Source: Kondoa subrosea (lineage: Eukaryota). From it: a DNA stretch of 64,000 nt. The stretch covers positions 734,925-798,924 of the forward strand of contig BCIN01000004.1 of NCBI GenBank assembly GCA_039545335.1, written 5' to 3'. Positions 12,101 to 53,070 of the stretch are shown here, piece by piece (the stretch's first letter is position 1; each line of letters opens with the position of its first letter). The translations under genes were made by a program, and so were the position numbers. The notes under the pieces were generated by a model that was not told the DNA's origin, ran no database searches, and saw only the letters and a program-made list of their open reading frames with translations.

Positions 12101-15100
12101 TCACGAAGTGCCGATTTCCAGCCGGATGCCCATACTTGCCAATTCTGCTAATAGATATCGGAAGACTAGACAATAGACAGCATAGATGAGCGTTGCATAT
12201 TTAATACTTGGAATGAGCATACCGAATGGAACCGCGATCAGATCCATCCTGCCCTTCTTTGCGATCGTAGTCTTGCCATTCGTCAGACTGACATGAACTG
12301 GTTTCCCAGCATCGCGTTGCTCTTCATCTTTCGCTCTGCACACTCGACAATATTCCCCTCCAGGGCCAAGATCAGCAGTTGGTTCATATTCTTCGCCATT
12401 AGGTCCAGCAATCACTTGAGTTCCCAAACCAACTTCATCATACCCAAGAGTGATCATGCTGCCACAATCTCTGCAGACCCAGGCGGTTGAGTAATCCGAG
12501 CAGTTCATCAGTCGATCTTGCAAGAGGAAAGAAGTGCCGTGAGCGAGTAAAGCATCTCGTTCCATTTCACCGAAACGGATACCACCTCCACGTTTTCGTC
12601 CCTGTAAGTTTTGTTAAGACTTCCATGAATACGAAAAAGAATAGAAATACCTTAATGGGTTGTCGAGTCAATTGATCATATTGACCTGTTGTCCTCACTT
12701 GCCATTTGTCGGAGACCATATGTCTCAAGCGTTGATAATAGACCAAACCAATAAAGATATCAGCATGGAACTCTTCACCCGTCATACCGGAATACATCGG
12801 TTCATTGCCATGATAACCATAACCAGCAGCTTTGAGTTGTTCTCCAAAATATTCAGCAGGTGTGTTCTCTTCCGAAAATGTAAAAGGAGTAGCGTCTTGG
12901 GGGATTCCGTGACATGCACCGGCCTTGCCAGCAAGGGATTCGACAAACATGCCGATAGTCATACGGGAAGGGAAAGCGTGCGGGTTGATGATGACATCAG
13001 GTTGCATACCAGATTCAGAGAATGGCATATCGATAGCTGGCCATTTCTGTGAGCAGACACCTTTTTGTCCATGTCGAGAGGAGAACTTGTCACCGATTAC
13101 CGGCGCACGAGGAACTCGGAGTTTGATATGTATCTTGGTGAGGTGTGAGTCACCAGTATCGCTACCTGTAAAATTGAATAAGATCGTATCACATTGACAA
13201 ATAGCAGGATGAACGTACCTATTAGGCGAACTTCATCAATATAAGCAACTTCATCACCCTTATACTTCTCCCAGATAGTTCTTCCCGTAGTCGGATCAAA
13301 GTAAGCCGCTATTGCTTGACCCTTCTTCAGTTTGGTGCCTATAAACGGTAAACCATCCACGTCGACCATCTCTCTCCTCTCATCTTCAGCCCGTACATCA
13401 GGTCCAAGACAGAAATAGAAAGCTTTATTATTGCCTCTTTTATCTTTCAGATCGACAATCATTGATTTGTAGATTGTTCCATAACCAAATCCACGTTCGT
13501 GAGCTGATTTGTTCAGAATCATAGCATCTTCCATATCGTAGCCAGTGTAAGAGATGACTGCTACAACAGCATTGGTTCCGTTGGGGAAAGAGTCAAAACC
13601 ATAAGTATCGTGAAGGGCTGGCCTGACTATTGGTGTCTGAGGAGACTGAATCCGATATAATTTGTTGTCCGTCCGATGCGGTAAGTTGGTAGAAGGTGTT
13701 CCCATAGTTTGTTTACCCATTTGACATTGATACATATTACGAGGACTTTGGTTGTAGTCGGAGAAAGGTGTGAGATTTGCGAGAACGGACAGCATATGTG
13801 TTGGTGCGATTTCCACGTGACTGAAAGTTGTGGAACCAGCCTTGACTTCATCAGGGATGCAAGCGATATCAAGGTAGACTTGTTCGAAAGAACCGACCAT
13901 GTCTGTTTTCATGTTTGCAAGATATTTGACGGGTCGCATCATTCTTGATCTGGACGAGAAAATGTACAGCCCAGGGTATTGACCACCTTTTGAAGCAGGA
14001 ACCAGACCAATCTCAAGATCCATTGGTATCCCTTTTTCTCCTGCTGTCTTGTACAGCCGCAAAGCGCGAGCCATTTCTGCAGCCAAAGTTGGACTAGCCC
14101 AACCAACGATCTTTCCATCTACTTGCACGCACACGTTCTTCTTTGCTTCTACTCGTGTACTCCAAGGTTGTGTCATACCGAAAGCGAATAACAGAGGTTC
14201 GACAGTCGAAGCATCGAGAGAAGATGTGATGAGTTTGCATTGATGAGAGAAATGGTTGAGCAGACCACAAGGTGATCCATCTGGTGTATGCACGGGACAC
14301 AGGAAGCCCCAAGAATCAGGTAAGAGTTTGCGCACTGTAGTCGTTCGCAATTCCATGAAGAAAGCACCACGATGGACGCAGCGGAAATGCGCCAGGAAAC
14401 GATAGAAATTGAGCTTTTCAGCTACTATTGTGAAACCTGCAGCTTGTTGCAAGTCAAGACCGGTGGGAGTGATTAGATTGCCAGTAGCGAGGAAGAACCG
14501 AAGTTTTGCGCCAACATCAGCGCTAATCCGAGCGAATTGTTTGTTAAGGTATTTGTTATCGAAGAAGTCGACTCCTTCAACTCCGCGATCAACATCGTTC
14601 TGTATAGCTGCCCGCATGTTGGTAGTCAGTTCTTCCAGCTTCTCTTTGATGATCATTCCGTAAAGGAACCCTGGCATGAGAATTTCCTGATGTTGCGGTG
14701 AGTCTGGGTTGTCTGCACAACATTCTCCTCCGACCAGCGCATACAGCTTTCGAATCATGAATCTACGGAAGATCTTCAGAATCAATTCATAGCAAGATGA
14801 AATCACTGACAATAACATGCGGAATTTATCTTCTGCTCTTGAGAGATGGACGAGGATAATCTTCTTGAGCAGAAACTTGCCCACTTCTTCGTTCGACCAA
14901 TCCGCTGGACACCCCAACACTATCCTGAACCTCATTCCCAAGAACTCTCTACATTGCTTCCCGTTGACCAGGTTGTATGACTTGAAACCACGTAAAAGCA
15001 ATTCAATCCGATCGGTCAAGAAAGGCTCAAGATCGTTTTGCGCTAGACCAGCAAAAATGTCTTTATCCGTTGATGAATTGAGAGCTTTGAGGATCATCAT

Positions 15101-16062
15101 GACCGGAATCATATATTCAGATTTCCGCCAACTGAATCTGATCGTCACACTCCCGTTCGACAGATAATGCAAAGTATTTGTTTGAGCAGTTTCATCTGGT
15201 CGAACGCAACGAATTTGCACACCATAAGGCGAATAAGCATCTCCTCGATTCTGAAACGAGTTTCGGAAAACAGCAATAACGTGGTTTCTTCTCGGTACGA
15301 TCAAGAAGCGAATCAGACGTTCGTTTCCGTTGACGATAAAGTATCCACCCATTTCTTCTGCTTCTTCATGTCTTTGGACTAGCGCAGCAGGTGCCATTCC
15401 GCGAATGTTACAACGAATAGAACGGATCATGATTGGTAGGGAACCCAATTCTCGATTTTCAGTATGTGATGCTCCACCATTGACGGACCAGGAGATCTTT
15501 GCTGTCATTCTTCCGCCGTAAGTAGTCATTCTTTCTCTTGCCTTGATGTAATATGAGAATGCGGATAGCTGGTAAATTGAAGTCTTACCTCAGACGGAAA
15601 GATTCTGGGCTCCGCGGCCTTTGCTCTGTCTGGTTGAACAGGCCTTCCAACAGATATACTGTCTACCTTGACTAGAACACAAATTTTAGTTATGCCGCAT
15701 TTCAACACAAACGAGTCTGAAGACATACTGACTAGCCTATTGCCCTTGCCCTCTTTCTCACTGAAGACTACTTTCGGATCCAAATCTTTCACAGCCAGAT
15801 CCAGCAATCCTCGAGTACCATTGTTTCCTTCAAAGAGTGCATTGAAAGACTCGATATGAGGTCGAATAAGTTCATGAGCTTCAGCATAATGAGCTTCGGT
15901 CTTGCTTGGGTATCTAAACTGCCTTTCTCGCTTTAAAGTGTTGAAGTGCGTTTCTGGCAGGACATTTCCTGGTAAAGCTCTTCTTTTGCCCAATTTCTTG
16001 CTTGATGGAGCAGTAGGGTTAGCTATGACTGGATCCGCCAACGACTGCTCAGCCAAGGACAT
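12101..16062 (-). CDS. RPA135: DNA-directed RNA polymerase I second-largest subunit, multi-exon
   Basis: Motifs [99 protein letters not shown] and ERDALLAHG are Pol I-type. Confidence 0.97.
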
Positions 16063-31388: not shown

Positions 31389-32449
31389 ATGTCTTCCTCA
31401 GCAAGTCAATCAGCTCAATACCAGCATTCGCAGCTCCATCCCCGATCGGATCCCAACTACCCTGCCGCAGACCGACAGGGAGAACGCCAGGACCCGCATA
31501 ACTTGCTGATTATGGACCGTCTGCGTAAGTTTTGGCCTGTCCCAAGCGGAAGAAGCTGATGAAGCAATCTTTCAATAGGCGGTGATCGTGTAGCTTTGGA
31601 CGTCTTTGACTCATCTCTAACTCATTGGTACCGCGGTCCTACCGGCAGACCGACAGACTGTCGTACCCTTTACAATGTCACCACAAGAAAGATTCAACTC
31701 ATGAACAACACAGCTTATCAATCCGCATTCTCTGCCGCGACTCAAATCGATCGTGGGTTTGAACATGCATGGCTGTCAATACACTTAGCTGACTTTCAGT
31801 ATAATGCAGATTATTTCGAAGTAGCTCATATGGGTCTAGCTGTCCAAGCTATGGCTCAATCCGACGGCAATATACACAACATTCGCAACGAGAAATTACG
31901 TGTGCTGCTCCATGAACCTAGAAACCTTCACCTGGTTCCTAAATCCATTCGCGATGATAAGATAGCCTACCTAAATGTGAGTCCTATCAAAAGAAACAGG
32001 AAATGAGCAACTAATCATGCCTGTACGCCATGTAACTAGGGCAGAAAGGACAAAGAAGAGATGAGCCCTGCTCTGAAAGGCTACTTGAAGGCGGCAGCCC
32101 AGGAATTCAAGGCACTCGTTGATGATTACATGCAAGCTTTCGACACCATGCGTTCGGATGCCGGTAAACTTCAAGAAAAGCTGTATCCATGGCTCCGTGA
32201 CAATAGGTCTCACACACGCTACGGCGAAAAAAATTCTACGTACACTCAACAGGCAAGAATTATTGAAGAATGTATACAAGCTCAATCCGTCATGAGGGGT
32301 ATCAAGAACACTCCGTGGTACACCGGCGCTTGGGAAACCGCCTGGCTCGAGTGGGTTATGGATCATTTGCATTGCCTTTCCGTCACTGACTTCACCGCTT
32401 TGATAGACACGGCTTCCACTGGCCTCACATTCACGGCACAGTTGATTGA
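31389..32449 (+). CDS. Orphan protein A with HNH/His-Me-finger-like motif (paralogue of 43491-44614)
   Basis: Introns 31525-31578, 31753-31809, 31977-32039 and 32351-32406 give a continuous frame with IDHYFEV, HEPRNLHLVPKS and WLEHGFHWPH. The gene is well supported by paralogy; the nuclease function is an inference. Confidence 0.75.
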
Positions 32450-32837
32450 GAAAGAGAATGAGATGGCTTGATGACATTGACAGACTCTATGCTTGTTCAT
32501 ATAATTTCGTCTGTTTTCAATCTATGTGTACTTTCCGTTGCAGCAGAATCGCAAATGAGAGCAAGCGGCGGCAAGAGCTCCGCTTACTTCTAGCATAAAT
32601 GACATACATGATCTGTCTTACACAAACACACTTCTTCACCCAAAAAACATCGATGCCCAAACCATCATATCGAAAAAGTTAAATTTCGCAAAGTTGCCGA
32701 ACAGCGTCAACAGCAGAGATCCGTTAAAGAAGAAGATTGCTTGCGGATGTAATGGTGTCTTATCGCCCAGGCGCAAGCTAACAAAAACCTAGCAACTATT
32801 AGCATGTGCCGTTGGCCCGCTTCGTTGCTCGTACCAA

Positions 32838-34526
32838 TCAAGCTATCTTCTCTATCAGCCTCCCGCTGCCGCTCTGTCGATGTGTCTACTCTCGTTCGCC
32901 AAAGCAGCACTTTTGCTGACCAGATTCTCATAGTACCCTTCAGTGAGACCCGCACAGGCTCTATCTTCTACGTTGAAGGCTGTAATTTAGATCAGGGTGG
33001 CTCAAGGTCTACCAAATGACTGCTCATACGAGGTTTCAAACTGCCTGTAAGTGGAATGAGGAACCAGGTCCTGGAAGTTTTGAAGTCAGCATACCGTGGA
33101 AATGCTGCTTTACTTCGCTTCGGAAGCGTTCTATAGGATCTATAGGTGGGTTCTGTTGTGCACAGAGCCATGTATGCCATTTATGACCTGCAAGAGGATC
33201 AGGCTGAAACAAACTAACAAGCTAACTCACGAACCAGCCATTACATGAGTAATCTCGTCGCAATGTATGGTCGTCAACGCTTCCGCGCTTTCATGATCGC
33301 CTGCTGCTTTGACTCGAGCTATCTGAGTTGGATTGACGTCTAGACCTCTCGCTTCGTGAACCATATGTATGACTGGACCAAGATTAGTACAATGCCAATT
33401 TTCAGCGACAGTAACATACTGCATAGGCGAGATATAAGGGAATGAGAAGTATCACGAGCTGACTGAGTAGATCGATTAACTTTTTCATGCAGAGACAGGC
33501 TGACGACGCACCTGCCACAAACCAGAATGGACAGGTAAGGCACCATAATAAGATCCGAGGGCAACTAGTCGATCTTGAAGCAAGCAAAAGTGCTTGCTTT
33601 CATCCTCTGCAACTTTTATAAAATCGCTAAAGAAAGACAATGGCATAGGTTTCTTCCCATCTTCTCCTTTCGCGAAACGTGCAATATCGTCCATTGCCAG
33701 ATCAATAGCATAATGTTCGATATTGGCCAAAGAATGAAGCATTGCAATTCTTGAACGCAAGCTTCCGCCTTTACCTCGTTTGCCAGATTGACCAGGCTGA
33801 ATCATTGAAAGAGAACTCAACCGAGGAGGTTCATCTGGAGGTGAAGCGTTTCCTATTTGCGTGAGTTGACCAGTCCGGAATAGATGAGACAGCTTTCGAA
33901 CCAGCGCAATCTTTTGTTGAGGTTCCGGTGTACGGAGAATAAGAGAAGCGAAACCTGTAACTGTTGTCGGCTCTTCTATATCGTCTGACTGCAAGGAGCG
34001 GGAGTCTAGCGAAGGAATGGGAGCAGCGGGAAATGCTTGGGATGGGATATAAGCCATTGCAATTGTATAATGATTGATAAGCTACCTTCAGAAACAGGTC
34101 TTATGCTCAACAAGCTATACTTGGCCTCCATATCAAGATAAAGTTCATCTTCCTGAATTGACACCTTCCATGTACATGCGTTCATTCCGGTCGATGATGC
34201 TCCGGCTGAGTAGAAAAGCATAAAGACTCGAGAGAACGAGATGCACGAGGGCACGTACTGGCCAGGTTGAAGTCATATGAATGAAATGGACACAGAGCTA
34301 CAATTTCACCGGAATCCTCGATTTCTACTTCCGCGTTTTGCATATCCGCTCCTAGGTGAGGACAATCTTTGACTATAGTATGCCATCGTTCCTCAGAACT
34401 GTCGGTAGAAGGGAAATGGAAGAGGATAATGGACAGATAAACGTCGCTTTCGAGCTTGCGCAGCGTCAGAACATGTCGTATAGAGTTTTGGAAGTCTCTT
34501 GTAGGCCCTAGATATAGCAGGGGCAT
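32838..34526 (-). CDS. Rieske [2Fe-2S]-like domain fused to DUF455 ferritin-like domain
   Basis: N-terminal CPHLG...CPFH (Rieske-type ligands). C-terminal HSLANIEHYAIDLA, KVAEDESKHF, LPVHSGLW, VHEARGLDVNP and DEITHV are DUF455 motifs. Confidence 0.88.
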
Positions 34527-34839
34527 CAGCTGAGGTATAAGGAACTGTGTAATGTGATTTGATGATCGTTCAACATCAATGGTTCTTTGAGAAGCCAGCA
34601 AAGCAAATCAGGCGCGAAAGAAGGTTACATAAGCGAAGCAAGTTCATGAAACAGAGAAATAATGCATAGTCAGGGCTAATCAGGAATTCGATACATGAAC
34701 AGAAGCTCTAACGGTTCCTGCTACCTGCAACGCTTGGCCTGAGGCCGAAACCACCTATTCGCAGAGGTATAAGCCTAGTTACAGAACCATCACAAATTCG
34801 CACTTACTGGTCGATGTCTTGAATCGCTGCATAGGCGTT

Positions 34840-35492
34840 GGTCCTTCATTATGTCCAATTGATTTACCGAAGTTTCTCGAGCCAGAGACGTCTTCCAAAT
34901 CGAAGGTTGCAGCTCGATGCCCATGCCTGCAAGAAAAGATCAAAACAGAATTGGAGGGGCCTGATTCGTGAGTATAGTACTCACATGATGCAACCAATCA
35001 AAGAAGCGACTTCTTTAGCAATAGTGTGAGGAAAAGTAGTTCCAGCTTTCATATGTTGATGATATTCCACCGCGAAAATTTCTTTGTAACGATTGCGGCC
35101 CCCTTCGTCTCGCAGAGACCAGTTTTCTCCCTTAACTTCTATATGACCAAACCACGCAGCCTATAGCAAGGATGAGCGGTATAAAGTTCAAGATTCATAG
35201 CAGAGCTTACTGAGCCCTGGATGTTACAGGATGCGCTACACACCCGATTGCCAGCAGAGTCAAGGCATTCAATATCGAATTCCTTTTTGCCCGGCACGCC
35301 AGCATTGATGTTGTATGCTTTTTGTCGATCAGACACTTCTTCCCACTGTAAGCTGTTCTTTATAAGGAGTCCGGTATGCACGCGGAACTTGATGACTAGA
35401 CGAAGACCCATGCGTTGAATTCGAGCATCAGCAGCTTTGAACGCATTTTGGTCGAGATGAGTTGCATCGACAGAGGTAGAAGAAGAAGCCAT
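34840..35492 (-). CDS. Small hypothetical protein, multi-exon; 3' end approximate
   Basis: ATG in a good context at 35492 and a 117-aa ORF. A further exon reads EVKGENWSLRDEGGRNRYKEIFAVEYHQHMKAGTTFPHTIAKEVASL. A TATAAA lies upstream near 35591-35596. Confidence 0.5.
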
Positions 35493-35705
35493 GTTATTGT
35501 CAGAATCAATGTATCCAGATAACAGGTAAGACGGTCAATCCGAAGAAAGTGATGTTTGGGATCAAGAGGCAGACTCAACGCAAGACGTAATTTATAGCCT
35601 TGAAGAAATCCACGCAGATTCGGAAATCCGACTCGATTCGCTTCTCCGAAGAAAAGCCTAGGAACGCTATAGCCGTAAGCGAATTCTTTGATCATATTTC
35701 GGATA

Positions 35706-35786
35706 TTGAGGACGTTACGGTGAACGAAAACGGAGCAGCGAGTAATTTGAGGACGTTACGGTGGACAACACCGGAGCAGCGAGTAA
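35706..35786 (+). repeat. Two-copy 41-bp tandem duplication
   Basis: TTGAGGACGTTACGGTGAACGAAAACGGAGCAGCGAGTAA (35706-35745) and TTGAGGACGTTACGGTGGACAACACCGGAGCAGCGAGTAA (35747-35786). Confidence 0.9.
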
Positions 35787-36613
35787 GAGCTATGGATTGC
35801 CGAAAATACCATGAAAGGGAAGGGGTAAGCGATATGCCTTGACGACAAACCACGAAAGATGACAAGAGAAAGCGGAGTCGGTCCATAATATTCATCAGAT
35901 TGCCATCTGTTCATTACTCCGCAGCTCGTTGGTCTGCAGTTTATTTGACATCAAGCAGAGATCTATACCTGTTCACGCTTCTTCGCCGTAAAGAATTATG
36001 CTTGGCGAAAATCAACCTCTTTGAAAGATGAGAATGGGAGGTGATGCAGGGAATATCTGATCACGATATACAGACAACGAAGCCAGAGCGACTGTTCTGA
36101 CCATTGGTGACTTGCTAATCCAATCCTATCCTCCGGCTTGGACAGCCAAAGTAAGCAGAAGTTGTCATTCGCGGTTCCTTCAAGTCCGTTACAGTAGATC
36201 CGTTGTTCAGAGCAATCGAATTCATTAAGCCTTTGAAGGTGTTGCAGGCATACGCCCCATCCTCTAGCCCGCGCAGCATCGAAGCAATGGTATCTGTAGC
36301 TGAAGGCTTTCGAAGAGCTTCGTAAACACGATAGTGATATTGGCTTGGATTTGCGCAAAGTCCGGAAGGTGTAATGCAATGGAGCTTAAATCGTACGCAG
36401 ATCTTGGACGAAGCTGAATGATCAATTGTGGTAATGTGGTACAGGACAAGCTACAACTTAAGAAACCGAGGGGGGGATTACGTAAGCACTGGATGTGGCT
36501 GATTAATATCTCTAAAAGCAGATGCATGCAAGATCCCTTTCCTTAGGAGTTAACAACAAAACCCGAAATGATGCAACACAAATGCGCCCAAACAGAAGAA
36601 GACCAAATCAACT

Positions 36614-39531
36614 TCAGAAAGCCAATACCTCGGCTGCACTCGCTTCACCAATGCGACTGCAGAGGAGTATCAGTATCAGACTAGGGACGAAGTTACAACA
36701 TACTCTATCAGTTGAGCAACGAAGAGACTTTCTGGCTGAACACGGGTGCTCGTAGAGACAAGATAACCAGTAGAACCTTTTTGAGTACCAATGCAGCCAA
36801 CGCAGAAGTCTAGTATCAGTATTAGCTCATGAATTGCGCATCGCAATCTTTGTGCTCACTTTGGGATATAGGCGGCCTCGCTACATTGATGTAGTTGCTT
36901 GCTCGTACATTCCAGTTGACTGAGGCCCCGATACTCCAACCTTGCTGGTTGAATCAAAGTGCATTATCAGCGAACTATAGCGAGCCGACAAGGATAACTT
37001 ACACCACTACCAGCAACCCCGCGGTTGATCATTTCTGAGACTGCAACTGTAGAGTTATCGAGCAGAAAACCAGTTGCCCATCTTTGATGCTTCCAGACAG
37101 GTCAAGAGCCGCTAGTAAGAATCTATGACATAAGCTTACAGGTGCGACCGATCCAGCAAGTACGGTGTTCTGATTTAGCATCACGTTTGGTCCAGCAGTC
37201 AGAGTCTGCGTAGTAGACTCGTATGCACTGCTTCCGCCAGGATTGATGGTAGTACATCGTGCGACCAGTACTTGACTCCCTAAGATTCCTATATCTGCAG
37301 CAGAGCCCTTAATCGCGAGCAGACAATCAGCGACAACGTATAGAAGTCAAGTAGAACTCACTGCACTTCTGTCAGGCACAAGATCTCGTCGGAAAATGCT
37401 GTCTACAATGGTGATACGACTTGCGTTGGCTGACACAGTGATCATCTGATTGTAACCTTGAAATTTGACTCGGCGGACGAAAGCATCCGAAACCCAAGCT
37501 TTGAATAGAATTGCAAGATCTGACTGAGTGACAGGTAGACCTGTACCATCGGGAGCTCGAACGAAATTCAAGTCTTCAAGGCCGATTTCTTCAAGCAAGA
37601 TAGGAGGTGTATAAGAAACCAGCTGTCCGTTGTCGTATGTTCCGTTGATTGCATCGGTCAACGGGACATCCAAAGTGACTGTGTTGCCTTCGATATCGAC
37701 GATATTACGTGGTTGTTGCATTGGTCTAGTCACGGTTGAATCTGCAAGCCTCCAGTCAGACTTCGCACACGCACCTTCCCACGGCTAACCAAGTTTGATT
37801 CAGGCCCTAACTGGTCTTTGAACACAAAGCTTCTGAGTCTGTTCGGCATAGCTTACACCTTTGACCAATGTATCCATGCCCATAAACGAAACCCAAGCTT
37901 GGCTGACTGTTCTTTGCACAAAGACAGCTTTGCCAGGATACAGGCCACTCGGATCAGCGACAGTCATCTGTGTAGCACCGACGCCCACATAGGGATCAAG
38001 GATTGGTGTGCTGAACTCAGGAGGAGAAAAGAGATCTGCAACAGAAGGTGAGATAGCGATTAATGTTCTTTGAATGCCTTGCATGACTAGGATTGTCGAG
38101 CCGTCTGGTGCTCCGCGAAGAACGCAAGGCGTGCTTATAAGTACGGTCATACTCAAGCTGAAAGTGTAAGAACCAGAAGCCAATTGTACTACGCCTCCGA
38201 TACATGTGTTTAAAGCCAATTGCAGGTCGAGAGATCGGTCTGTATCATCGCCGGTTGGCAATAGAGTGACAATGACCGGCAGATTGTCGGTGATCGGGAG
38301 AGGTTCGGAAGATTGTCTATAGCCTGCATAGGAATAGTCTGGCAATCTATCGACTCCGTTTTGGAAAGGAAGAGTCTTATAGTCGACGAAAGGTTGGACA
38401 GTTTGTGTTGCGCGAATCAAGTTGTATGAAGTTGTTGTCGAAGGTTCTAAAGCAACAACCGTTTCTACAAAGGTACTGCAGCACATGCTCAGTCACGTGT
38501 AGTTGAAGTTTGAAAAGAGCTCTAACCTGGTAGCCAAAGCTTGAACGACTTGCGTTGTTTGAGCAGTGACAATCTGAGTTACTGGGTTGGCGGTTGATGT
38601 CGATGTGAGGAGCTGAATCAGAGTCTGGGTGACCGGGATAATCGAGGTCTGCTGTTGAGTGATATTGACTATTTGAGTAGAGATTTGGCTTGAGGTGAAG
38701 CTTTTAGTCAGGAAAGTAGTGGATACAGAAGTCTTTGTAGCTCGATACATGGTGACTGTAGTTGCTGGGAGTCTGACGACTGAACTGCATGCTCGAGAAA
38801 TACTTGCGCTTTTGAACTTGGTCAGCTGACTTGGTATCGATGTGACTGTTCGTTTTCTATTTTGACTGCGTGTATCGGTGATGAAGATTGTACTGAATTG
38901 ATCTTGACTGGCAGTGACGACTGGCCTGGAAGTGATGGTGGAAGCTGCTTCGCATATGAGTTTGGAAATTTTGAGATGTGCAAAGTTGAACTCACTGCTA
39001 CTTTCTAAGACAGTCTGAGTGCTCGTAGCAAAGACTGTCTGCAAATTAGTTGATCTAAATAGCAGATTGGCATAGGAAGCACGATGTGTAGAAAGCACCC
39101 ACTGAATAGTTTGAGCTGGAGCGGATTCCACAACAAGACTAGTAGAGGTAGTAGGAACCAAGCTCGTCTGTAGAATGACCGATGTAACTTGCTGTGTTGA
39201 CTGCAAGACAGAAGATTTCATGACAGTGGTCGAGCGAGTAATTCGTTTGGTGCTGAAGACCCTGTTCCATCGAGGTTAGCATATGGGCAGATGGAGGAAT
39301 GTCTGTCGTACGTAGAAGTAGCAGTCACTGGATACCACAATCAGCTTACCGATCTGCATTCCTCAAACCAAACTGACCAGTCCATCGCGGTGGTTGTATA
39401 TAAGTTGAGCAGAATCCCTGTAGTTTGTATTTGCTGATAGAAGCTACCACCGGATCTTGCGCTTGTACAAAGCTCAGAAGGAGATATGAATGGGTGAGAA
39501 ATGAGAGTAGGCAGCTGAAAGATACAGCCAT
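36614..39531 (-). CDS. Secreted protein: Thr/Ser-rich stalk plus C-terminal pectin-lyase-like (right-handed beta-helix) domain
   Basis: Signal peptide ending ...SFVQAQD and a T/S-rich ORF 38493-39221. The domain has LPDYSYAGY, LQLALN..GGVVQLASGSY, WVSFMGMDTLV, VTLDVPLTDAI, HQRWATGFLLD, NRGVAGSG/QGW and PESLFVAQL. Confidence 0.75.
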
Positions 39532-40000
39532 AGTGAAGTTTTAGACAGAAACAGCTTTGAAAGGAATGTGCGAGAGCGAGTACTAGAGAAAGAAAAGACA
39601 GACCCAAATAAACAGAGGACAACGCCGCGAAAAAGGAGATCAAAGAGCACCCCGATCGCTGGGCAAATTGCAATCATGCAATCACATAATTGGAATGCAG
39701 GTTGCGGACACGAGGATCGGAAGGCAAGGCTCGTAGTCTTCTTCTCTGTGACACCGCATCTTAGCCATTGAGCAACAGAGGTCGCCGCTTTTCGAAAACA
39801 GTGTCAAAGCACACCCGACGGATCGGGAAGAACTTGTCAATGGGCATCCCTGAGTGTACTGATGACGTCTCTTTATTTTGCACTTGGATTCACTTATAAA
39901 TTAATGCTAATCTTTTGGTATCGCGAAACGCGGTATCTCTTTTTCTGATAGTAGTACAAAAAAATGGGAATTCTTTCTGTCCATCGACCCCATCTTCTCC

Positions 40001-42082
40001 TTACAGCAGAGCGAACAAGAATGCTACACTTGCAACCAATCCACTGAAAGCCAATAATGATCCTGATGAATCTTTCGACGATGTAGGTTGAGATGAAGAA
40101 GCTGCTGCAGCATCTAAGGCTGCAGTGGCATTGGCTTCCACTACAGATGATGAAAGACTTGAGCTTGGTTCCGGCATGCTTGAATATGCTGTTATCGGTG
40201 TGCCTAGAGGCGCGGTAGCGGTAGCGGCGAAGCTGTCACGAGGATCAGTCAAAGATCAAAATTTCTACCATGAGTACAGATTCTCACTTTGCGCTGTCTG
40301 ACGCCAGCTCCTGTGCATTGAGAGCTGTGTCGTACGTCTCGGTGTAGTCGCCTTGGCCGCAAGTTCCGATATCGGTAAACTGTGGTCAGATTTCAGCTAT
40401 CAAGGAGCATCTCAAAAGCTATTCGACCAACGTAGAAGTACTAGAGCGCTGTATATCAGCGTTTATCCAAATGTCAGCCAGAAGTGAACATACGTGATCA
40501 GCTTCGGATTGCCCACCAGCGCAACGAGCTAAGCATGAGAAAGTTCAGCATACTGAAGCGATACAACATCAACAACAAAAGCTCACGATCCGCGTTCCAG
40601 CCTTCGCAAACCTCAAAGTCTTGTCCATACATTGCTGATTGACCAAAGACATGAATTCCAGTATTCTAGAACCCAAACAGCTCACATCAACATTTCCCTC
40701 TCTACTTTCTGGAGTATACTCAAAAACGCACCACAAAAGTGTAATTCATTGGTCCAGTACCAATAGGTAGCATACCAGGAACCGAGTCATCGTTGGAAAC
40801 TGTTCGTTGGGAAGAATCGCCAGGGAAAGTTTCATCAAATTTAGCTGCTGCGGCTGGATTGAAGACTGGTGGTGAACCGAAAGATTGCACAGAGTAGGCA
40901 AAAGTCCGAATTTTCAGGTCTAAGGCTCCAACTTGTGCTACCATACCTCCAAAACCGTGGCTGTGCACAACCGTCGTCAGTTCGTAAGAAATATATCAAG
41001 ACAATGAAAGTTGACTAACCCAGCAGCTGACCATACGAGGTTTTGTTGAGTTGCTTTGATTTGAGCCATATCGTTGGTATGGGCTTTGATATCTTGCCAT
41101 GCTTGGTACGCGCCAGCGCTACATTTCCTTGCTTTAGCTTTCCCCGATCATTTTTGACGCAAAGAAGAAACCTGACTGTACTTTGCATGTGTCGTCGCAG
41201 CCAATACCGAGATAAGGTACTAAAGTGGCATTGTATTCTTGCCAGCCATAATTACCCTTGAAGACTGAAACAAAAACATCAAACGGGACAATATAAACAG
41301 CATGGAAGGGAAGACCGCACTCATGAGGATCTTGTTCATTTCTGGCACACGCACTGCGTAACCAGTCTGATTGTAAGTTCCAACGTTGAACCATTCATCT
41401 ACAACCTGTTCCAAGACGGCGGCATTAATACTTTAACAGTAACCCAATGACAATGCAGCTGACTTCAAAGGGAGCGTTAGTGTTGCCTGGATACTGTCGT
41501 TGAAGCGTTTCGTAAGTGAAAGCTTGTGGGCATTCACTAACACATGGTCAGTATAGAATCATCTAATTTTGCAACAGAATCAGCTCACGAGCGATAGTTG
41601 CCGTAAGCCGACATTGCGAGTTGACCTATACTAATCGTAAGCTATGTATCTGATGAATATTTGTAGGCCTACCATGGTATTTCTAGGTAATCAAACGAAA
41701 ATTTAAGCCAAGAGCGATTTGTAAAGAAACTTTCTGGGACTCACGTTGTGCCAGTAGAAGCTCGCAGAGCCAACACCGCTATTTAAACACCCATTCTGAG
41801 TCTACATAAATGCATACGTCCTTCAAGAAGAACGCACGACCAAGGATCAGTAGCCGCAGGTGATCCAGCAGCTGGTGCCGCAGCAGCAGTAGGACTAGGA
41901 GCTGGAGTCCAAGGTGATGCATCTTGAGTCCAAGTGTTGCTCGGACCCTGCTCGGTTGCTGCCCAGGTGTTGTCTCCGTTTCCAGGTGCCCAAGTGTTTT
42001 GTGCTACACTAGCATTGGCTGCTGCTGGATCTTGTGCTTGTACAGCATAGACCATGACGGCCAGAAGAATAGAAATGTGCAT
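40001..42082 (-). CDS. Secreted, probably GPI-anchored lipase class 3 (alpha/beta hydrolase) homologue lacking the catalytic Ser
   Basis: Signal peptide; spliced CKVH|AGAYQAW, AAG|HGFGGMVAQVGALDL, SFGSPPVFN, NDDSVP and ADH..YF; S/A-rich stalk and hydrophobic C-terminus SLLAFSGLVASVAFLFALL. Confidence 0.75.
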
Positions 42083-43099
42083 GATATAACGGAAGTTCTG
42101 GTATGAAGTAATAGTCTAATCAGGGTTTGAAAGCTGCGTGAGTGCTTGAAGAAGCTGTGAGGGTTGTGGGCTGATGATAAGAAGAGTAAGCGAAAATCGA
42201 ATGGAAGAGAGAAGACCAGCAAAAGAAGGAAGAAGCAGAAATGCCGAGCGCAAGGTCAATTCAAAACAAATAGTCGGGATTTTGTTAAAGACTGCAGACT
42301 GCATGAGGGCAGAGCGGTGGCATATATGGCAGCCGATGACACGCGAACAGGGATCCAAGAGACTCGCTGAGCAGAAGAGAAGGCGACTTTCACTTCAACC
42401 TGCAATTTCGATATGACGCCTCAATACTACTGCATATCGTATCGTATGCCATCAAGCTAGGGCTGGATGTCTGCTTCACCTGTTTTTGCTTTCATCCATT
42501 CAATCGAAGCTGCCTTCTGTCCTTGGATTCTTTGTCAATCTCTGTCGAGGCATTCATGATCTATCGCGAATACAATCTCGTAGCAACAGCCTAGCAGGTC
42601 TCAAGTGTATGATTCTGCCACATTATTATTCGCTCAAATCCTCTTCAGCAAAGCAAAGCATTCGGCGAATGACCAGCCGTCAAATATAATTCGAATCGAA
42701 CAAGAAGCTCCAATTCCGACGGCCGCCCATTGCTTTACTTTTCTTTATCGGACTGTTTGGATGGCCCAGGGCGCTCCATTTGTGAGAGACCTTTGATGGT
42801 TCTTCTTGGGCTGAACATGCTCTGAATCGCCCAACATCAGGCCAAGACTTGCCTGGTTTGACGTATGAGCGCCTTAGTTCCTACTCATCATGGAGTGAAA
42901 GCAGTCCAATCGTCTCTCATAGTCTCGCTCGATGATACCTTAGCCAATCTGAAGATAGGACTTTACATTCCTAACCTTTGGATATGTTCATACTTGTCGT
43001 TCATGTTTGCTCTGCACTGGTCTTCAATGGCAGTTGCGACTCGGCTTGGATGGTCGTTCCTTGTCAGAGCTGAAAATACATCTGATTCCCATTGTCAAC

Positions 43100-43404
43100 C
43101 GCTATTTGTCAACAGAACGGCTCTTCGACGGTAATCCGATGTGATTTCTCTGATTTCTTCGCTATACGCCGGTCATACTGAATAAAAATAGCAATCCTCG
43201 GTGGAATTGCTGTCGTCCGTTACGGTGAACCGCTATTTCCCTACTTCCGCTATTTTGCCATACGGAAAGACGACGCTATTGCAAGGAGTCACGGAATAGA
43301 ATCTGTATGGCTGCTGGAATTCCGCTTTGGGCCACTTACATCCTGTACTTACACCGAAATCATCTGTTCTTGATCCGTTCTTGGATTAGAATGATGCTAT
43401 ATAA
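43100..43404 (+). promoter_or_regulatory. Putative promoter of orphan gene B with clustered CGCTAT(T/A) motifs and a TATA box
   Basis: CGCTATT at 43100, 43231, 43248 and 43274; CGCTATA at 43160; TATATAA at 43398-43404; ATG at 43491. Confidence 0.45.
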
Positions 43405-43490
43405 GCTGAAGAATTATCTTCTCTCTCTTGTTCTCACCAATATCATTGCTATACTTCTGACCATTCAAGCAAATACTTATCATCAGCATT

Positions 43491-44614
43491 ATGTCATCTC
43501 CTCTTTCGCAGCAGGGTCACTATGACCATACCATGATGCACCCACGGGATGATCCTGATTATCCTGCTGCAAATTCCTATGGAGCACGACTGGAGCCACA
43601 TGGTGGTACGATTACCACAATGCTGCGTGAGCATAACCCTTGCTGTTATGTTTTGTCTGATTGATTGACGCGTCATATAGGGGGAGGACGGACCGCTCTT
43701 GAAAAGGGCGATAACAATGACACTCGATGGTATAGAGGTTCGACCGATAATTGCAACAACCGATACAACTATACCCCGAAATTTGTCACAATTGATAAGA
43801 ACGAATTGAAGCTGCATCGAGATAAGCAAAACGATCATGCTCAATACGAGAGATCCGAAGTCGACCGTGAGTGATAGAGATCAAACCATTTGCATGGTCT
43901 GAACAACTGCTCTTGATGCAGATTATTTCGAAGTCCAGTTTATGGGTGTGTCGCTTATTGTTCTTGGCGTCATCTCTCGTTGATGTGCGTCGTCATTGGT
44001 AGCTCTTGTTGCGGATACACACGGAACAAAGGAGAATGACGAGTTGAAAAGAATTGTCAATGCACCTCGCAATATGCATTTGGTGCGGAAATCACTTCAC
44101 CTAGAGAAGTCGCTTTACCTTTCTGTCAGTTGATCTGACAGCCACAATCGTCAATTGCTCAATAGAAAGAGTTTTGTACAGGGTCACAAAGGCGGAATTG
44201 CAATGAGTAATGAACTTCACTCCTACATGGTGGCTGCTGCTACTGAGTTCAAGAGCTTGGTCAATGAAGAGTTGGCAAGTCTTTTGCAGCGTAAACCGCA
44301 GATCGATAGAGAAGCTGCCAAATCGTCAGAAGAATATAACCGATGTTTGAAGACTTATGGAGAGACAGATTATCGAACAGCCATGGCTAAAGACCCGTTT
44401 ACCAAGGCTATGGCACTGGAGGCTACTTCCAAAGCGGCCATTGAGGTTTTGGAAGATCTCAAGCACTCGCCATTCTATACAGGCAAATGGTCCGACCATT
44501 GGCTGGAGTCAGTCTGCTTCTGGTTACCTTGTGTGTGTGTTTTCGCTGATAGACAACATATGTGTCAGGCATGGTTGGCACTGGCCTCATAACTTGGCTT
44601 CAGGAGCCCAATAA
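43491..44614 (+). CDS. Orphan protein B with HNH/His-Me-finger-like motif (paralogue of 31389-32449)
   Basis: Introns 43627-43680, 43867-43921, about 43946-44002, 44125-44181 and 44508-44568 give VDHYFEVQ, VNAPRNMHLVRKSLHLEK and WLEHGWHWPH. Confidence 0.75.
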
Positions 44615-49809: not shown

Positions 49810-52800
49810 TTATACATTTGCAAAGAGCGGTCTTTGAGGTGGATATCTCGATGTCGGTGAAGTAGGCGAAAGAGTGTAATCACTTCTCGGCGAATTGATG
49901 GTAAAGATAGTTGAAGGGCGGTGAGGTCTTGAAGGCGGACTTACGACAGCTGAGCGATAATCGGATCTGATAGTCGTAACAGGAGAGCGAGGAAGATCAT
50001 CTACTTCTGTTTGGGAAGAGGGTATAGGTTGAAGCTTGTAGAAAGGATTGTTTGATTGGGCTGAGTGCTGACTGCCACTACTATTCGAGCGTTGAACATT
50101 ACTGTAGAAGAAAGGGTTCTTTGAAGATGTTGAAGAGGAAGTGTGCTGCGGAATTAGAGGTGCTTGCAACAGGCGAGGTACCGGAGAAGCTGATCTTGAA
50201 GTATTCTGAGAGTGAGAAGGATTTGGTGTCATGCTATCCGGAGAAGGAGTCGGCGCATGGGATGAAGGCACGCGATAGACATGAGTGTTCTCGGTAACAA
50301 TTGGCCCGTGAACGATGCGAGTTGGTCCAGAGATGGATTGAATGAAATCTCGATCAGCCTTGCTTTCGCCAGGCGAAGTGAAGGATTCCATAGAACGCCT
50401 TCGAGCTGGTGTTCGATGCAAAACATTGCGAGCGCTAAGCTTCATTGATCTGAAGGTGATTCCTTTCGGCCCTTGCTCACTATCAAGAAAAACGTTAGGG
50501 AGATTCCTGAAAAGAGGTGAAAACACTTACAGCCCTTTCTGATCCTGAAATTTTTGCGTTTTCAAGAGTCTTCCTTTTCGCATACACCTTCGGACAAAGA
50601 AAGCCAAGAGTAGAAGTAGAAATAAGAGACCGATAGAGGCGCCGACTATTGCTCCAATATTGAGGGGTTTCTTGTCAGTAGATTTGGTTGCGGTTGAGCT
50701 TGTTTCTTCCGGTTTGGTAGTAACCAATGCTTCCAAGCAGACACCAAATCCAGGAACGACCGAAGTCTCGCCTAAACAAGAGGCTAGTCCGCATGATCCA
50801 TCTTTCAAAGTGTGCTGAGAATCACAAGACAGGCAATTGTCATTGCTTGAGCTCCAGCATGTTTCGCAAGAGGAGTCGCACGATTTGCAGCTTGACGATT
50901 GTTGATCGAAGTATTCATTTTTTGAGCAGGTTTGTAGACAGGAGCCAGAAGAAGAGAGGATAGGTCGATCAGAAGGGCAGGTTGTGCAATGGTCAGAAGA
51001 TCCAGAGCAGCTTGAACAGTCTGCAGAGCATGATAGACAAGAGCTCGAGGTGCTGTCGAAGTATGTTCCGCTCGGACAGGAAGAGGCGACCACACATTTC
51101 GAGTTGATCATGAGACTTCCGCTTGCGCAGGAAGTGCAATTATCTGACGATCCGCTGCACGAGGAACACGATGAGTTGCAGTCTGAATAAGAAATCAGTC
51201 AAGCCGAAAGTTTTAATCCACGAGTACTCACTTTGACACTTGGCAGTGGAATCGGAAGCAACGTTGCCAAATTGACCACTCGGACATGCATCAACGCAGG
51301 TTCCGTTAAGAGATAAGAAAGAGCCAGCAAGACAGGCAGTGCATTGGATGTCGGAGCGAGAAGAAGTGACTGAGAAGTTTGGAATGCGGGCTGCAGTACA
51401 TTTGGCGGGAGCGGCTGCGAAGTATATGAGCATACTGATAGGCACATTGTCAAATTGTACTCACAATCACACTCAATCTTGTTATTGTCAAGGATGAAGA
51501 CAGCGTTCGATCCAGTCTGGGTAACACCAGTCGAAGACGCCTTGTCGCATATACCAGTACTCCTGTGAATCTGTCAGACTAGAAGACGAGGGCAAATGTG
51601 CTAAATGTACCGATCGACATCAACGCATTGGCCGGCCATCAGCACTCTAGGACTATTGCATTGGATGCAGCTGTCTGCACCATCCGCGTAGCAAGTTTTA
51701 CAGACCCCATTACAAGCTGCGCATGTGCCATTGTTGTTGAAGGAGCCATCAGGACATGTCGAGAATTGCGAGGTAGATCCATTTTGCAGAAATGGTGATG
51801 CTTCGCAATCCGTAGGACTGCTGGGCGAGATAGCCATGCCTGGAGCACATGTCAAGCATCGATCTGCAGTACAAGAGGAGCAGCCAGGTTGACAAGCTGG
51901 TCAGCGGATTAGTCAGTCATTATTCATCCTTCCAAGAGCACCTTGACTAACCCAAACAGTCTCCAGAAGTCGACATAGCAAATCCAGCAGCGCATATTGA
52001 GCATCTTTGACCATTGTTTGAAGCATCTGCCCAACCAGCATTACAAGCGCAAGTCGAAGAATTAGCACAAACACCATTCAAGCAATTGCAAGTTTCTTGG
52101 CAAACAATCAGTAAGGTAAGCAATACGAGGGAGGCAATGAAGGACTCACGGGCTGCTGTAGTGATATTCTGAGCCGGCGCAACGCAAAGTCCAGTACCCG
52201 TTATCCCTTGAGAACAGGTTTCTCCGTTCGAGCAATTGCACGGGGAGCAATTCGGACCAAAGAAACCAGATGAACATTGATCTGGTGACAGAATTATATC
52301 GCAATACGATGTACAAGGCAAAAGACATACTGCAAGTATTGCCAGTAAAACCGGGCGAGCAGGAACAAGTTCCGTTGTTGGTACAATATCCAGCTGAAGA
52401 GCAAGGAGTTTGACAAGAAGTGGATTGCACATCGATGAGAGTGACTTGATCCGTTTTGCCAACACTCCAGTGACTTGAATCTGCCACTCCGTCATAGACA
52501 ACAACTCTTCTGACTGAGCCTGAAGCTTGAGTGATGTTGAGAACAGCGAATTGATTGTCGGCCATAAGGAGAGAAGAGAAGGCTAGATTTGCAGGAGCGG
52601 AAGAAGAAGTGTTTGTGGTGATTAACCTAGGAGAGCCGTTGTATAGAGGTGTAGGATAGAGTAAAAGCTGGGTATCAGGTGATAGCGCTACTGTGATACC
52701 ACTCGTCGATGCTGAAGAAGTGAATCCAGAGAAGGCTTCAGGTTGAGATGCCAGCAGAGGTGCCAGAAGTGATGTTGCATTGGTAGTATTGCCATTGAGT

Positions 52801-53070
52801 TGAGGTGTGCTTGCTGAGTATGTGCCAGGTAGAAGTACCACGGTTGAAATGCTGGAGTTGACTGCTGGGGTACCAGCGAGACTTATTCCAGCTGAATGGA
52901 GGATTAGTTTTTCGACTCTTTACCCTTCCCTTTTCAGACTTACCACCTATAGAGCTGTTTCCTATTAGACATCCATCGGAAGAGCAGACTGCATCAACGA
53001 TGCTAGGCTGTTGAGCAATCGCGGAGCGCAATAGTAATGCACTGAAAACAAGTTGAACGAAGAAAGGCAT
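49810..53070 (-). CDS. Cysteine-rich (EGF/furin-like repeat) type I membrane protein, multi-exon
   Basis: Signal peptide; EGF-like CSSAGYCTNNGTCSCSPGFTG; furin-like repeats CPSGTYFD..CLSCSADCSSCSG; TM IGAIVGASIGLLFLLLLLAFFVRR; S/P-rich cytoplasmic tail. Confidence 0.85.

Follow-up and report, generated by a model that had tools for sequence, protein, structure and literature searches.

GmrSD_C/DUF1524 (PF07510) is a His-Me finger nuclease domain found in restriction enzymes of the GmrD type and in small actinobacterial proteins of the HNH family. PMC4619093 describes GmrD as a His-Me finger with a D113-H114 pair, a long insertion and two Asn, N169 and N178, the second at +9 from the first. 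In the DH-NNK toxins, according to PMC3113570, the DH dyad lies in strand 1 and the residues N, N and K in a helix. Tox-DHNNK (formerly Pfam DUF1994), a family of nuclease toxins from bacterial polymorphic toxin systems, is given the pattern 'DH, N, N, N, K' without zinc-binding cysteines in PMC3113570 and PMC3482391 (Table 2), the latter table also listing ascomycete and basidiomycete representatives. PMC3482391 also names the DHxxE motif as the mark of the Tox-HNH-CIDE clade and GH, E, N, E as the motif of GH-E (PF14410), a family of small stand-alone His-Me fingers with a NucA-like active site (PMC3113570), for which a 2017 census counted 366 bacterial, 8 archaeal and 0 eukaryotic members (PMC5714182).

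We analysed a window of 64,000 nucleotides of contig BCIN01000004.1 from Kondoa subrosea (GCA_039545335.1; positions are those of the window), in which an original prediction had proposed two orphan paralogues, A and B, with an HNH/His-Me finger-like motif. On balance, A and B are most likely functional paralogues of a lineage-restricted family of soluble intracellular proteins (~277 residues), the core of which (A ~95–160) would be a very divergent His-Me finger (HNH/EndoVII fold).

Gene models and paralogy of A and B

Gene A (31389–32449, forward strand) encodes 276 residues (831 nt) in five exons (31389–31524, 31579–31752, 31810–31976, 32040–32350 and 32407–32449), and gene B (43491–44614, forward strand) encodes 279 residues (840 nt) in six (43491–43626, 43681–43866, 43922–43945, 44003–44124, 44182–44507 and 44569–44614). 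Support for the models comes from splice signals and from sequence conserved in both genes. As modelled from the window, all nine introns are GT-AG introns of 54–63 nt, and only splicing gives each gene an open frame, which starts at a conserved MSS and runs to the stop. Position and phase are common to both genes for four introns (codon 46, phase 1; codon 104 in A and 108 in B, phase 1; 160 and 157, phase 0; 263 and 265, phase 2), and sequence conservation is unbroken over every junction (LRG, DH-YFEV, WLE-HG). With 35% identity over 288 columns in blastp (E 2e-54) and 102 identical residues among the 260 aligned by MAFFT, A and B are, judged from their sequences, true paralogues with four introns in common, as had been proposed.

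Intron 2 of A (31753–31809, forward strand; 57 nt, phase 1) interrupts the His codon within a conserved DH pair (GAT C/AT, the slash marking the junction), and intron 2 of B (43867–43921, forward strand; 55 nt, phase 1) does the same (GAC C/AT), so that the putative catalytic His is hidden from any ORF-based scan. The split codons match the original prediction exactly, and the intron boundaries given there agree with the rebuilt models. Since the intron of A keeps the frame and contains no stop, ORF 31563–32006 runs through it. In B, intron 2 is followed by a micro-exon of 24 nt (43922–43945, forward strand; H-YFEVQFM-A) and then by a fifth intron that is absent from A (43946–44002, forward strand), just 3' of YFEVQFM. 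Read unspliced, this intron leads into a stop; its sole branch-site candidate is a weak, TTGAT-like sequence.

The genes separating A from B encode DUF455, Rieske and Lipase_3 proteins and are unrelated to both, as had been stated. The neighbours are of the housekeeping kind (Kelch, NADH dehydrogenase 24 kDa-type, DUF455, Rieske, UCH), and no immunity-type neighbour of either gene was seen. Searching A and B against the window by tblastn returned these two genes only and no third copy; a match at 14291–14677 (E 0.18) is antisense to a long minus-strand ORF and was taken as chance. No duplicated flanks were found around A and B, the sole match being 39 aa long (E 0.008), and no repeats were seen around them. 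The composition of the window is even, with 41–49% G+C per 2 kb.

Conserved motifs and protein features

All eight motifs named in the original prediction were found, colinear, in both proteins in the MAFFT alignment: HPRxDPxYPAA, LRG(D/G)RxAL, WYRG, DHYFEV, PRN(L/M)HLVxKS, Y..AAAxEFKxLV, PxYTGxW and WLEHG(F/W)HWPH. The N-terminal one reads HPRSDPNYPAA in A (residues 17–27; 31437–31469, forward strand) and HPRDDPDYPAA in B (43539–43571, forward strand). The C-terminal WLEHGFHWPH of A spans 32343–32428 and is split by intron 4 (32351–32406), and its counterpart in B, WLEHGWHWPH, ends at 44590 (both forward strand). Identical residues are rich in His, Tyr and Trp (8 of the 14 His of A, 9 of its 13 Tyr and 4 of its 6 Trp), and A and B have a single conserved Cys in common.

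The D-H dyad is kept in both spliced proteins (A 103–104, B 107–108). In A, D103-H104-YFEV lies at 31749–31823 (forward strand) and spans intron 2 (D, 31749–31751; H, 31752 and 31810–31811; YFEV, 31812–31823); it aligns to the DH/EH of the GmrSD_C profiles and is proposed as the catalytic dyad of strand 1, presumably at the strand end. The second segment of interest is P140-RNLHLVPKSIRDD-K154 in A (31917–31961, forward strand) and P137-RNMHLVRKSLHLE-K151 in B (44065–44109, forward strand), with N142 and N139, respectively, as the proposed structural Asn. At +9 from this residue stands Arg in A (R151) and His, a possible metal ligand, in B (H148), and at +12 stands Lys in both (K154, K151).

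Exon 4 of A (32040–32350, forward strand; B counterpart 44182–44507) makes up the C-terminal half and includes AAAQEFKALV and PWYTGAW. It is predicted by AlphaFold2 from the alignment (pLDDT 76.2) to form a helical hairpin with helices at exon residues 10–54 and 67–88, for which Foldseek returned no PDB match at E ≤ 0.001. The AlphaFold2 model of the read-through piece of A, intron-encoded residues included, was unusable (pLDDT 37.1). The maximal 19-residue Kyte-Doolittle windows (A 0.45, B 0.71) indicate no hydrophobic segment in either protein, which is consistent with the lack of a signal peptide, as originally claimed, and of a membrane span.

Comparison with known nuclease families

Homologues of A and B were detected neither by word-indexed protein searches nor by phmmer against 1.84 billion representatives, nor in the metagenome and prokaryote contigs that were scanned. 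On the exon pieces, no family of Pfam, NCBIfam, PHROGs or PADLOC scored above threshold, in keeping with the original statement that no named family was recognised. GmrSD_C (gathering threshold 23 bits), GH-E and HNH were unreported by Pfam on these pieces even at E ≤ 10; its sole His-Me hint was WHH (PF14414), at E 0.083 on residues 19–33 of B exon 4, the PRNMHLV stretch, with 13.1 bits against a gathering cut-off of 25.1. In the ESM Atlas, the top three clusters for the read-through piece of A were GH-E nucleases (0.92, 0.91, 0.91), at a level of 0.9 that 4–10% of shuffled proteins likewise reach. The GH-E set accounted for 17 of the 30 matches, GmrSD_C took rank 11 (0.89), and the ten best family-bearing matches all fell within one family or clan; the Atlas match had 160 of 256 features in common, fewer than the 170 that are typical for true members of the same family. 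The Atlas query contained 20 intron-encoded residues, including DRGFEH, where the His belongs. DRGH is the motif of NucA-type nucleases, and DRGFEH might mimic it.

Profiles were built for GmrSD_C (28 actinomycete loci), WHH (17 loci) and classical HNH (29 loci); for GH-E, no true members for profile building were found in 400 + 401 genomes, the one match (PhnM) being false. The GmrSD_C profile scored 7.9 bits on spliced A, a value that 5 of 5000 shuffles of the same protein also reached, and matched IDH to the family (I)(D/E)H and NLHLV to NLllv; on spliced B it scored 0.2 bits (990 of 5000 shuffles as good). With the WHH profile, spliced B reached 5.3 bits (15 of 5000) and spliced A 0.3 bits (497 of 5000). 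Each protein is nominally significant (p ~0.001–0.003) against one family only, and the families differ. No signal was obtained with the classical HNH profile (A −1.8 bits, 2115 of 5000 shuffles as good; B −1.4 bits, 1978 of 5000).

In hhalign, where probabilities were 11–16%, the A/B core (A 88–160) aligned to GmrSD_C with a score of 22.2 (P 0.0017, probability 15.6%) and to a short actinomycete subfamily with 19.4 (P 0.0028, 33% identity over 49 columns). In each of the two alignments, DH, N and K of the core meet their equivalents, the A/B dyad falling on the catalytic DH of GmrSD_C and N-L-x-L-V on its structural Asn. Among the column-shuffled controls, one in 410 per profile scored as high as the true alignment (0/60 + 1/350), a p of ~0.002 that is better read as ~0.01 because four profiles were tried. 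In the reciprocal search of the core profile against 2203 ORFs of the fetched loci, the best hit was an unrelated ORF (E 0.77) and a GmrSD_C ORF came second (E 0.96).

GmrSD_C is the best profile-profile match of the core, with residues in register. The resemblance comprises an (I/V)-D-H dyad followed by a putative helical insert of ~30 residues, then x-N-x-P-x-N-L-x-x-V and a presumed helix that carries K at +12 and, in the family and in B, N/H at +9; the His-to-Asn spacing of 29 in actinomycete GmrSD_C compares with 31 (B) and 38 (A). Set against the GmrD layout given in PMC4619093 (D-H, insertion, N, N at +9), order and spacing agree, with H (B) or R (A) at +9. The family's N and N are, however, H and R in A, and A and B are eukaryotic, have four to five spliceosomal introns and unrelated conserved N- and C-terminal regions, and lack the DUF262 partner domain. 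Compared by eye with the published description of Tox-DHNNK, B offers DH, N135, N139, H148 and K151 and A offers DH, H, N, R and K, but A and B are no C-terminal cassettes of large secreted toxins.

Membership in three further families was considered and rejected. GH-E is the top language-model look-alike of the A piece, this likeness being its sole support; A and B have DH instead of GH and no Pfam match to the family. WHH is the only Pfam family on the motif region (PRNMHLV...H of B), but only ~7 residues separate its HH from LxLV, compared with 31–38 in A/B, the strand-1 site reads (I/V)-D-H with no W-H-H triad, the Pfam score stays below the cut-off, and A gave no signal. By eye, the pattern DH...N-L-x-L-V-x-K-S-x-(H/R)-x-x-K of A/B parallels DH...N-(L/V)-x-x-x-C-x-x-C-N-x-x-K of the fetched classical HNH domains (PF01844; McrA/Cas9-HNH type); A and B are without the zinc cysteines (CxxC...CxxC), have a longer spacer and show no profile signal. 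Of the original HNH/His-Me proposal, a His-Me finger identity is plausible in view of three weak lines, the WHH match, the GH-E and GmrSD_C look-alikes in the Atlas and the GmrSD_C register. Against it stand the null result with the profile of classical HNH, the non-significant reciprocal search, the nominal significance of each protein with a different family only, and the Arg of A at +9.

Proposed active site and alternative readings

A core of the His-Me finger kind would resemble GmrSD_C/DUF1524 and the DH-NNK toxins in having a long helical insert within its beta-hairpin. The dyad of Asp and His (D103-H104 in A, D107-H108 in B) would close strand 1 and supply, with its His, the general base; bracing of the hairpin would fall to the Asn of PRN(L/M)HLV (A N142, B N139), and the +9 residue on the next helix (B H148, A R151) would, with the Lys at +12, complete a metal/phosphate site. 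The flanks of such a core, for which there are no known counterparts, would be the family-specific HPRxDPxYPAA, LRGxRxAL and WYRG blocks, the helical hairpin and the His/Trp-rich tail WLEHG(F/W)HWPH. The putative ligand set is fuller in B (DH, N135, N139, H148, K151) than in A (DH, H138, N142, R151, K154), and on this reading B would be likelier than A to be an active metal-dependent nuclease; A may be a weakened or changed copy.

There is a lesser though appreciable chance that A and B form a lineage-specific non-enzymatic family, for example of scaffold or metal-binding proteins, and that the DH...N...K resemblance arose by chance among eight blocks. All thresholded database searches were blank, only two of the eight motifs are nuclease-like (HPRxDPxYPAA and WLEHGxHWPH have no His-Me counterpart), the C-terminal half is predicted to be a plain helical hairpin, and nothing came of either the reciprocal search or the profile of classical HNH. 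Chance would, however, have to account for three partly independent, weak signals (the WHH match, the Atlas look-alikes and hhalign) that converge on one clan among thousands of families, and for proposed catalytic residues that align in register with a spacer of DUF1524-like length. Least probable of all is that A and/or B, the latter especially, are mis-modelled ORFs or decaying pseudogenes. Both frames run from MSS to stop via nine canonical introns at a size usual for the genome, and conservation across each junction would be unexpected in decaying or imaginary genes, even though neither protein was found in any database searched and B meets a stop unless its micro-exon and the adjoining intron with the weak branch site are used as modelled.

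The toxin, allorecognition or meiotic-drive role of the original prediction found no support. For this pair, such a role would mean an active copy with a degenerate or protective partner. An orphan family with two diverged copies, the fuller putative ligand set of B and the bacterial toxin nucleases among the closest look-alikes (GH-E, WHH, DH-NNK) would suit such a conflict system; the housekeeping neighbours, the unduplicated flanks, the lack of repeats and of a third copy in the window and the even composition argue against it, and 39% identity with four introns kept points to an old duplication rather than a fast-turnover locus, so that we regard this role as very doubtful. Slightly less improbable, yet still unlikely, is a scenario in which a bacterial toxin or defence nuclease of the DUF1524/DH-NNK type was captured by a fungal lineage, loaded with introns and kept as an asymmetric pair; B would then be a still-active cytosolic His-Me finger nuclease that A, with H138 and R151, regulates or neutralises, the two forming a eukaryotic nuclease/pseudo-nuclease module, and the N- and C-terminal His/Trp-rich motifs would be the family's own metal-binding additions.

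Anyone annotating domains in intron-dense fungi can take the split His codon as a useful caution. The findings on A and B have no bearing on any long-standing open question, and should the His-Me finger reading be wrong, A and B are two ordinary lineage-specific fungal genes. If it is true, they would represent a eukaryotic branch of the nuclease superfamily that is both new and very divergent, with bacterial toxin and restriction domains as its closest look-alikes, and would add a modest further case of bacterial conflict nucleases entering eukaryotes.

Gene structure and the split histidine codon

Genes A (31389–32449, + strand) and B (43491–44614, + strand) were modelled from GT-AG boundaries. 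Gene A comprises five exons (31389–31524, 31579–31752, 31810–31976, 32040–32350 and 32407–32449) coding for 276 residues, and gene B six exons (43491–43626, 43681–43866, 43922–43945, 44003–44124, 44182–44507 and 44569–44614) coding for 279 residues. All nine introns of the spliced models measure 54–63 nt, and four are shared in position and phase, namely at codon 46 (phase 1), 104/108 (phase 1), 160/157 (phase 0) and 263/265 (phase 2) of A/B. The common start MSS and the conservation across every junction (LRG, DH-YFEV, WLE-HG) argue for the models. The two proteins can be aligned end to end, with 35% identity over 288 columns (blastp, E 2e-54) and 102 identical residues out of 260 aligned by MAFFT; at this divergence (39% identity) synonymous sites have reached saturation. 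The original prediction had described A and B as a paralogous pair with shared introns, one of which splits the His codon of DHYFEV. Spliced models, blastp and MAFFT confirmed this, the codon being read as C|AT in each gene; the predicted coordinates of both genes were right, as were all eight motifs listed for them.

Intron 2 of A (31753–31809, 57 nt) is in frame and devoid of stops, and for this reason the ORF 31563–32006 spans it. Its retention would maintain the frame and place 20 other residues where the proposed catalytic His stands. Read-through is impossible in the 55-nt counterpart of B. An extra intron in B (43946–44002) leaves a 24-nt micro-exon (43922–43945) and leads to a stop when read through; it is absent from A, which implies an intron gain or loss after the duplication. 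It contains a weak branch-site candidate (TTGAT).

Within the 64 kb, tblastn detected A and B as the only copies. A weak match of B at 14291–14677 was rejected as a third copy, being antisense to an 830-aa open frame (13097–15589, − strand) that by eye resembles the second-largest subunit of RNA polymerase. Flank comparison in the window revealed no duplicated flanks around A and B. Ordinary genes lie between them and on either side: F-box, Kelch, 2Fe-2S thioredoxin-like NADH dehydrogenase subunit, DUF455, Rieske, Lipase_3 and UCH. A hydrophobic stretch is absent from both proteins, in line with the predicted lack of a signal peptide.

Three adjoining ORFs at 37347–39275 (− strand; 145, 230 and 260 aa, the last very Ser/Thr-rich) have no Pfam match and may together form one gene for a secreted or wall protein. 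A 110-aa ORF at 41783–42115 (− strand), likewise without Pfam match, looks like a small secreted protein: it opens with a hydrophobic stretch (MHISILLAVMVYAVQA) and continues into a body rich in Pro, Ala, Thr and Trp. For the ORF at 52146–52919 (− strand), matches to EGF-like or teneurin-type EGF families were weak, with E values from 2e-5 to 5e-4, and stayed under the Pfam cut-offs throughout; if real, they would be unusual in a fungal genome.

Homologue searches and predicted structure

All homologue searches used unspliced exon pieces and a read-through stretch of A (31581–31976; 132 residues, of which 112 are real and 20 are intron-encoded and replace the His) in place of spliced proteins, and their sensitivity is therefore limited; with such pieces, a relative at the level of the paralogues (35–40% identity) would lie close to the limit of what can be detected. 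Three word-indexed protein searches covered 5.8 billion clusters. The 147-aa ORF 31563–32006 (setting ‘longer’) yielded 171 candidates, none at E ≤ 0.01; the alignment of C-terminal exons, A3 (‘longer’), 1028 candidates, none at E ≤ 0.1; and a further exon-piece alignment, A2 (‘near’), 38 candidates, none at E ≤ 10. The two matches returned by phmmer for the 132-aa piece against 1.84 billion representatives were taken as spurious, being proteins with internal repeats that aligned to the query in 10 and 4 stretches. Scanning metagenome contigs with A3 gave 377 pattern matches, none of which was confirmed.

With a degenerate DNA pattern for HPRxDPxYPAA, 19 metagenome and 14 prokaryote-genome loci were retrieved, and tblastn matched the motif alone in all of them. 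One metagenome locus (L010, 1–4531) with WYRG 1 kb downstream of the pattern was rejected as an apparent bacterial transposon region; the pattern occurs there by chance, adjoining ORFs that resemble a bacterial Tn7-type transposition module, and is unrelated to A/B.

Searches of the PDB by sequence returned only CSK (E 0.5) for the read-through piece and nothing for the exon-piece profile A4. No above-threshold match to the exon pieces was found in Pfam, NCBIfam, PHROGs or PADLOC, upholding the view that no named family applies. It is fair to state that these collections contain no close homologue, from which absence elsewhere does not follow.

The AlphaFold2 model of the read-through piece, which holds the intron-encoded residues, was useless for fold assignment (pLDDT 37). 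The C-terminal exon was modelled with fair confidence (pLDDT 76) as a long helical hairpin. Foldseek found no specific structural neighbour for it: no structure reached E ≤ 0.001, and those listed were helical hairpins of a generic kind.

Likeness to His-Me finger nucleases

Three weak lines of evidence, from Pfam, the ESM Atlas and our own family profiles, agree in pointing to the His-Me finger clan for the middle of A/B. The original proposal of an HNH/His-Me-finger-like family is thereby partly supported and plausible at the level of the clan; the classical HNH profile gave no signal for A or B. The sole relevant Pfam match was WHH (PF14414) on the PRNMHLV stretch of B (E 0.083; 13.1 bits against a cut-off of 25.1 bits). 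In the ESM Atlas feature search with the read-through piece of A, GH-E nuclease clusters ranked top (0.92, 0.91, 0.91) and made up 17 of the 30 matches listed, GmrSD_C appeared at rank 11 (0.89), and the ten best matches with a family assignment all belonged to a single family or clan. Shared features number 160, fewer than the 170 typical of same-family matches, and by the Atlas's own calibration the match counts as a lead only. DRGH is a NucA-type motif, which the intron-encoded DRGFEH included in the query could mimic. No usable match was obtained with the C-terminal exon.

For the profiles, bacterial family members were fetched by genome search, giving 17 sequences for WHH, 29 for classical HNH, 28 for GmrSD_C (DUF1524) and 19 for a short GmrSD_C subfamily; the loci of three genomes flagged as unpublished (G044, G811 and G840) were left out throughout, and no conclusion depends on them. 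GH-E members were found in none of 400 gammaproteobacterial genomes, and the single match among 401 Bacteroidota genomes is false, as it lies inside an amidohydrolase ORF that resembles PhnM and belongs to a phosphonate operon. The PF13930 search gave five GH-type sequences, outside the profiles used, and PF09533 (DUF2380) matched none of 301 genomes. Spliced A and B were each scored against 5000 shuffles of themselves. The GmrSD_C profile gave 7.9 bits for A (5/5000 shuffles as good) and 0.2 bits for B (990/5000), the short subfamily 3.9 bits (48/5000) and 0.3 bits (516/5000), WHH 0.3 bits (497/5000) and 5.3 bits (15/5000), and classical HNH −1.8 bits (2115/5000) and −1.4 bits (1978/5000), respectively.

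When the A/B core (A 88–160) was compared profile to profile, the outcome was more consistent than these single-protein scores. The core matched GmrSD_C with a score of 22.2 (P 0.0017, probability 15.6%) and the short subfamily with 19.4 (P 0.0028; 33% of 49 columns identical). In both cases DH falls on the DH/EH of the family, the PRNLHLV Asn on the family Asn and K on K. Actinomycete DUF1524 proteins show VQIDHVVAL...(helical stretch)...FANDPLNLLAVDGxLNxxK, the counterparts being SEVDHYFEV...IVNAPRNMHLVRKSLHLEK in B and TQIDHYFEV...LLHEPRNLHLVPKSIRDDK in A, with 29, 31 and 38 residues from His to Asn. This layout agrees with that given for GmrD in excerpts of PMC4619093 (D113-H114, a long insertion, N169, then N178 at +9), the residue at +9 being H148 in B and R151 in A. 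By eye it also agrees with the DH-NNK toxins, which in excerpts of PMC3113570 and PMC3482391 (Table 2) have their DH dyad in strand 1 and the residues N, N and K within the helix, fungal members being listed; that table also gives DHxxE as the mark of the Tox-HNH-CIDE clade. The residue set is DH, N, N, H, K in B as against DH, H, N, R, K in A, so that A may be a less competent copy.

The N-terminal HPRxDPxYPAA and C-terminal WLEHG(F/W)HWPH have no counterpart in any family compared. HG(F/W)HWPH (32408–32428; 44570–44590) can be weakly aligned to the start of the WHH profile, ‘hGWtWHH’ (hhalign P 0.006, probability 6%). In A/B the motif follows N-L-x-L-V at a distance of about 115 residues, the reverse of the WHH-domain order, and the likeness may reflect chance or a second metal site.

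A candidate nuclease family or a chance motif

Among the column-shuffled controls, one run in 410 did as well as the real core for each of the two GmrSD_C profiles; with four profiles tried, the significance amounts to p ~0.01. In the reciprocal direction, the A/B core profile gave no significant match among the 2203 ORFs that the fetched loci contain, an unrelated ORF being best (E 0.77) and a GmrSD_C ORF second (E 0.96). A serious rival, though the less likely one, is that A/B are a non-enzymatic orphan family carrying the motif by chance. On balance we regard it as somewhat more likely than not that A/B represent a new eukaryotic family of His-Me fingers, very divergent and of DUF1524/DH-NNK type, with family-specific flanks and with its putative catalytic His codon hidden by a conserved phase-1 intron. 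The suggested role in toxicity, allorecognition or drive found no support beyond the company kept by the look-alike families.

Pairs of orphan paralogues are frequent in fungal genomes. A and B, for which a nuclease function is a tentative prediction, provide a tidy example of a motif hidden by splicing within such a family.
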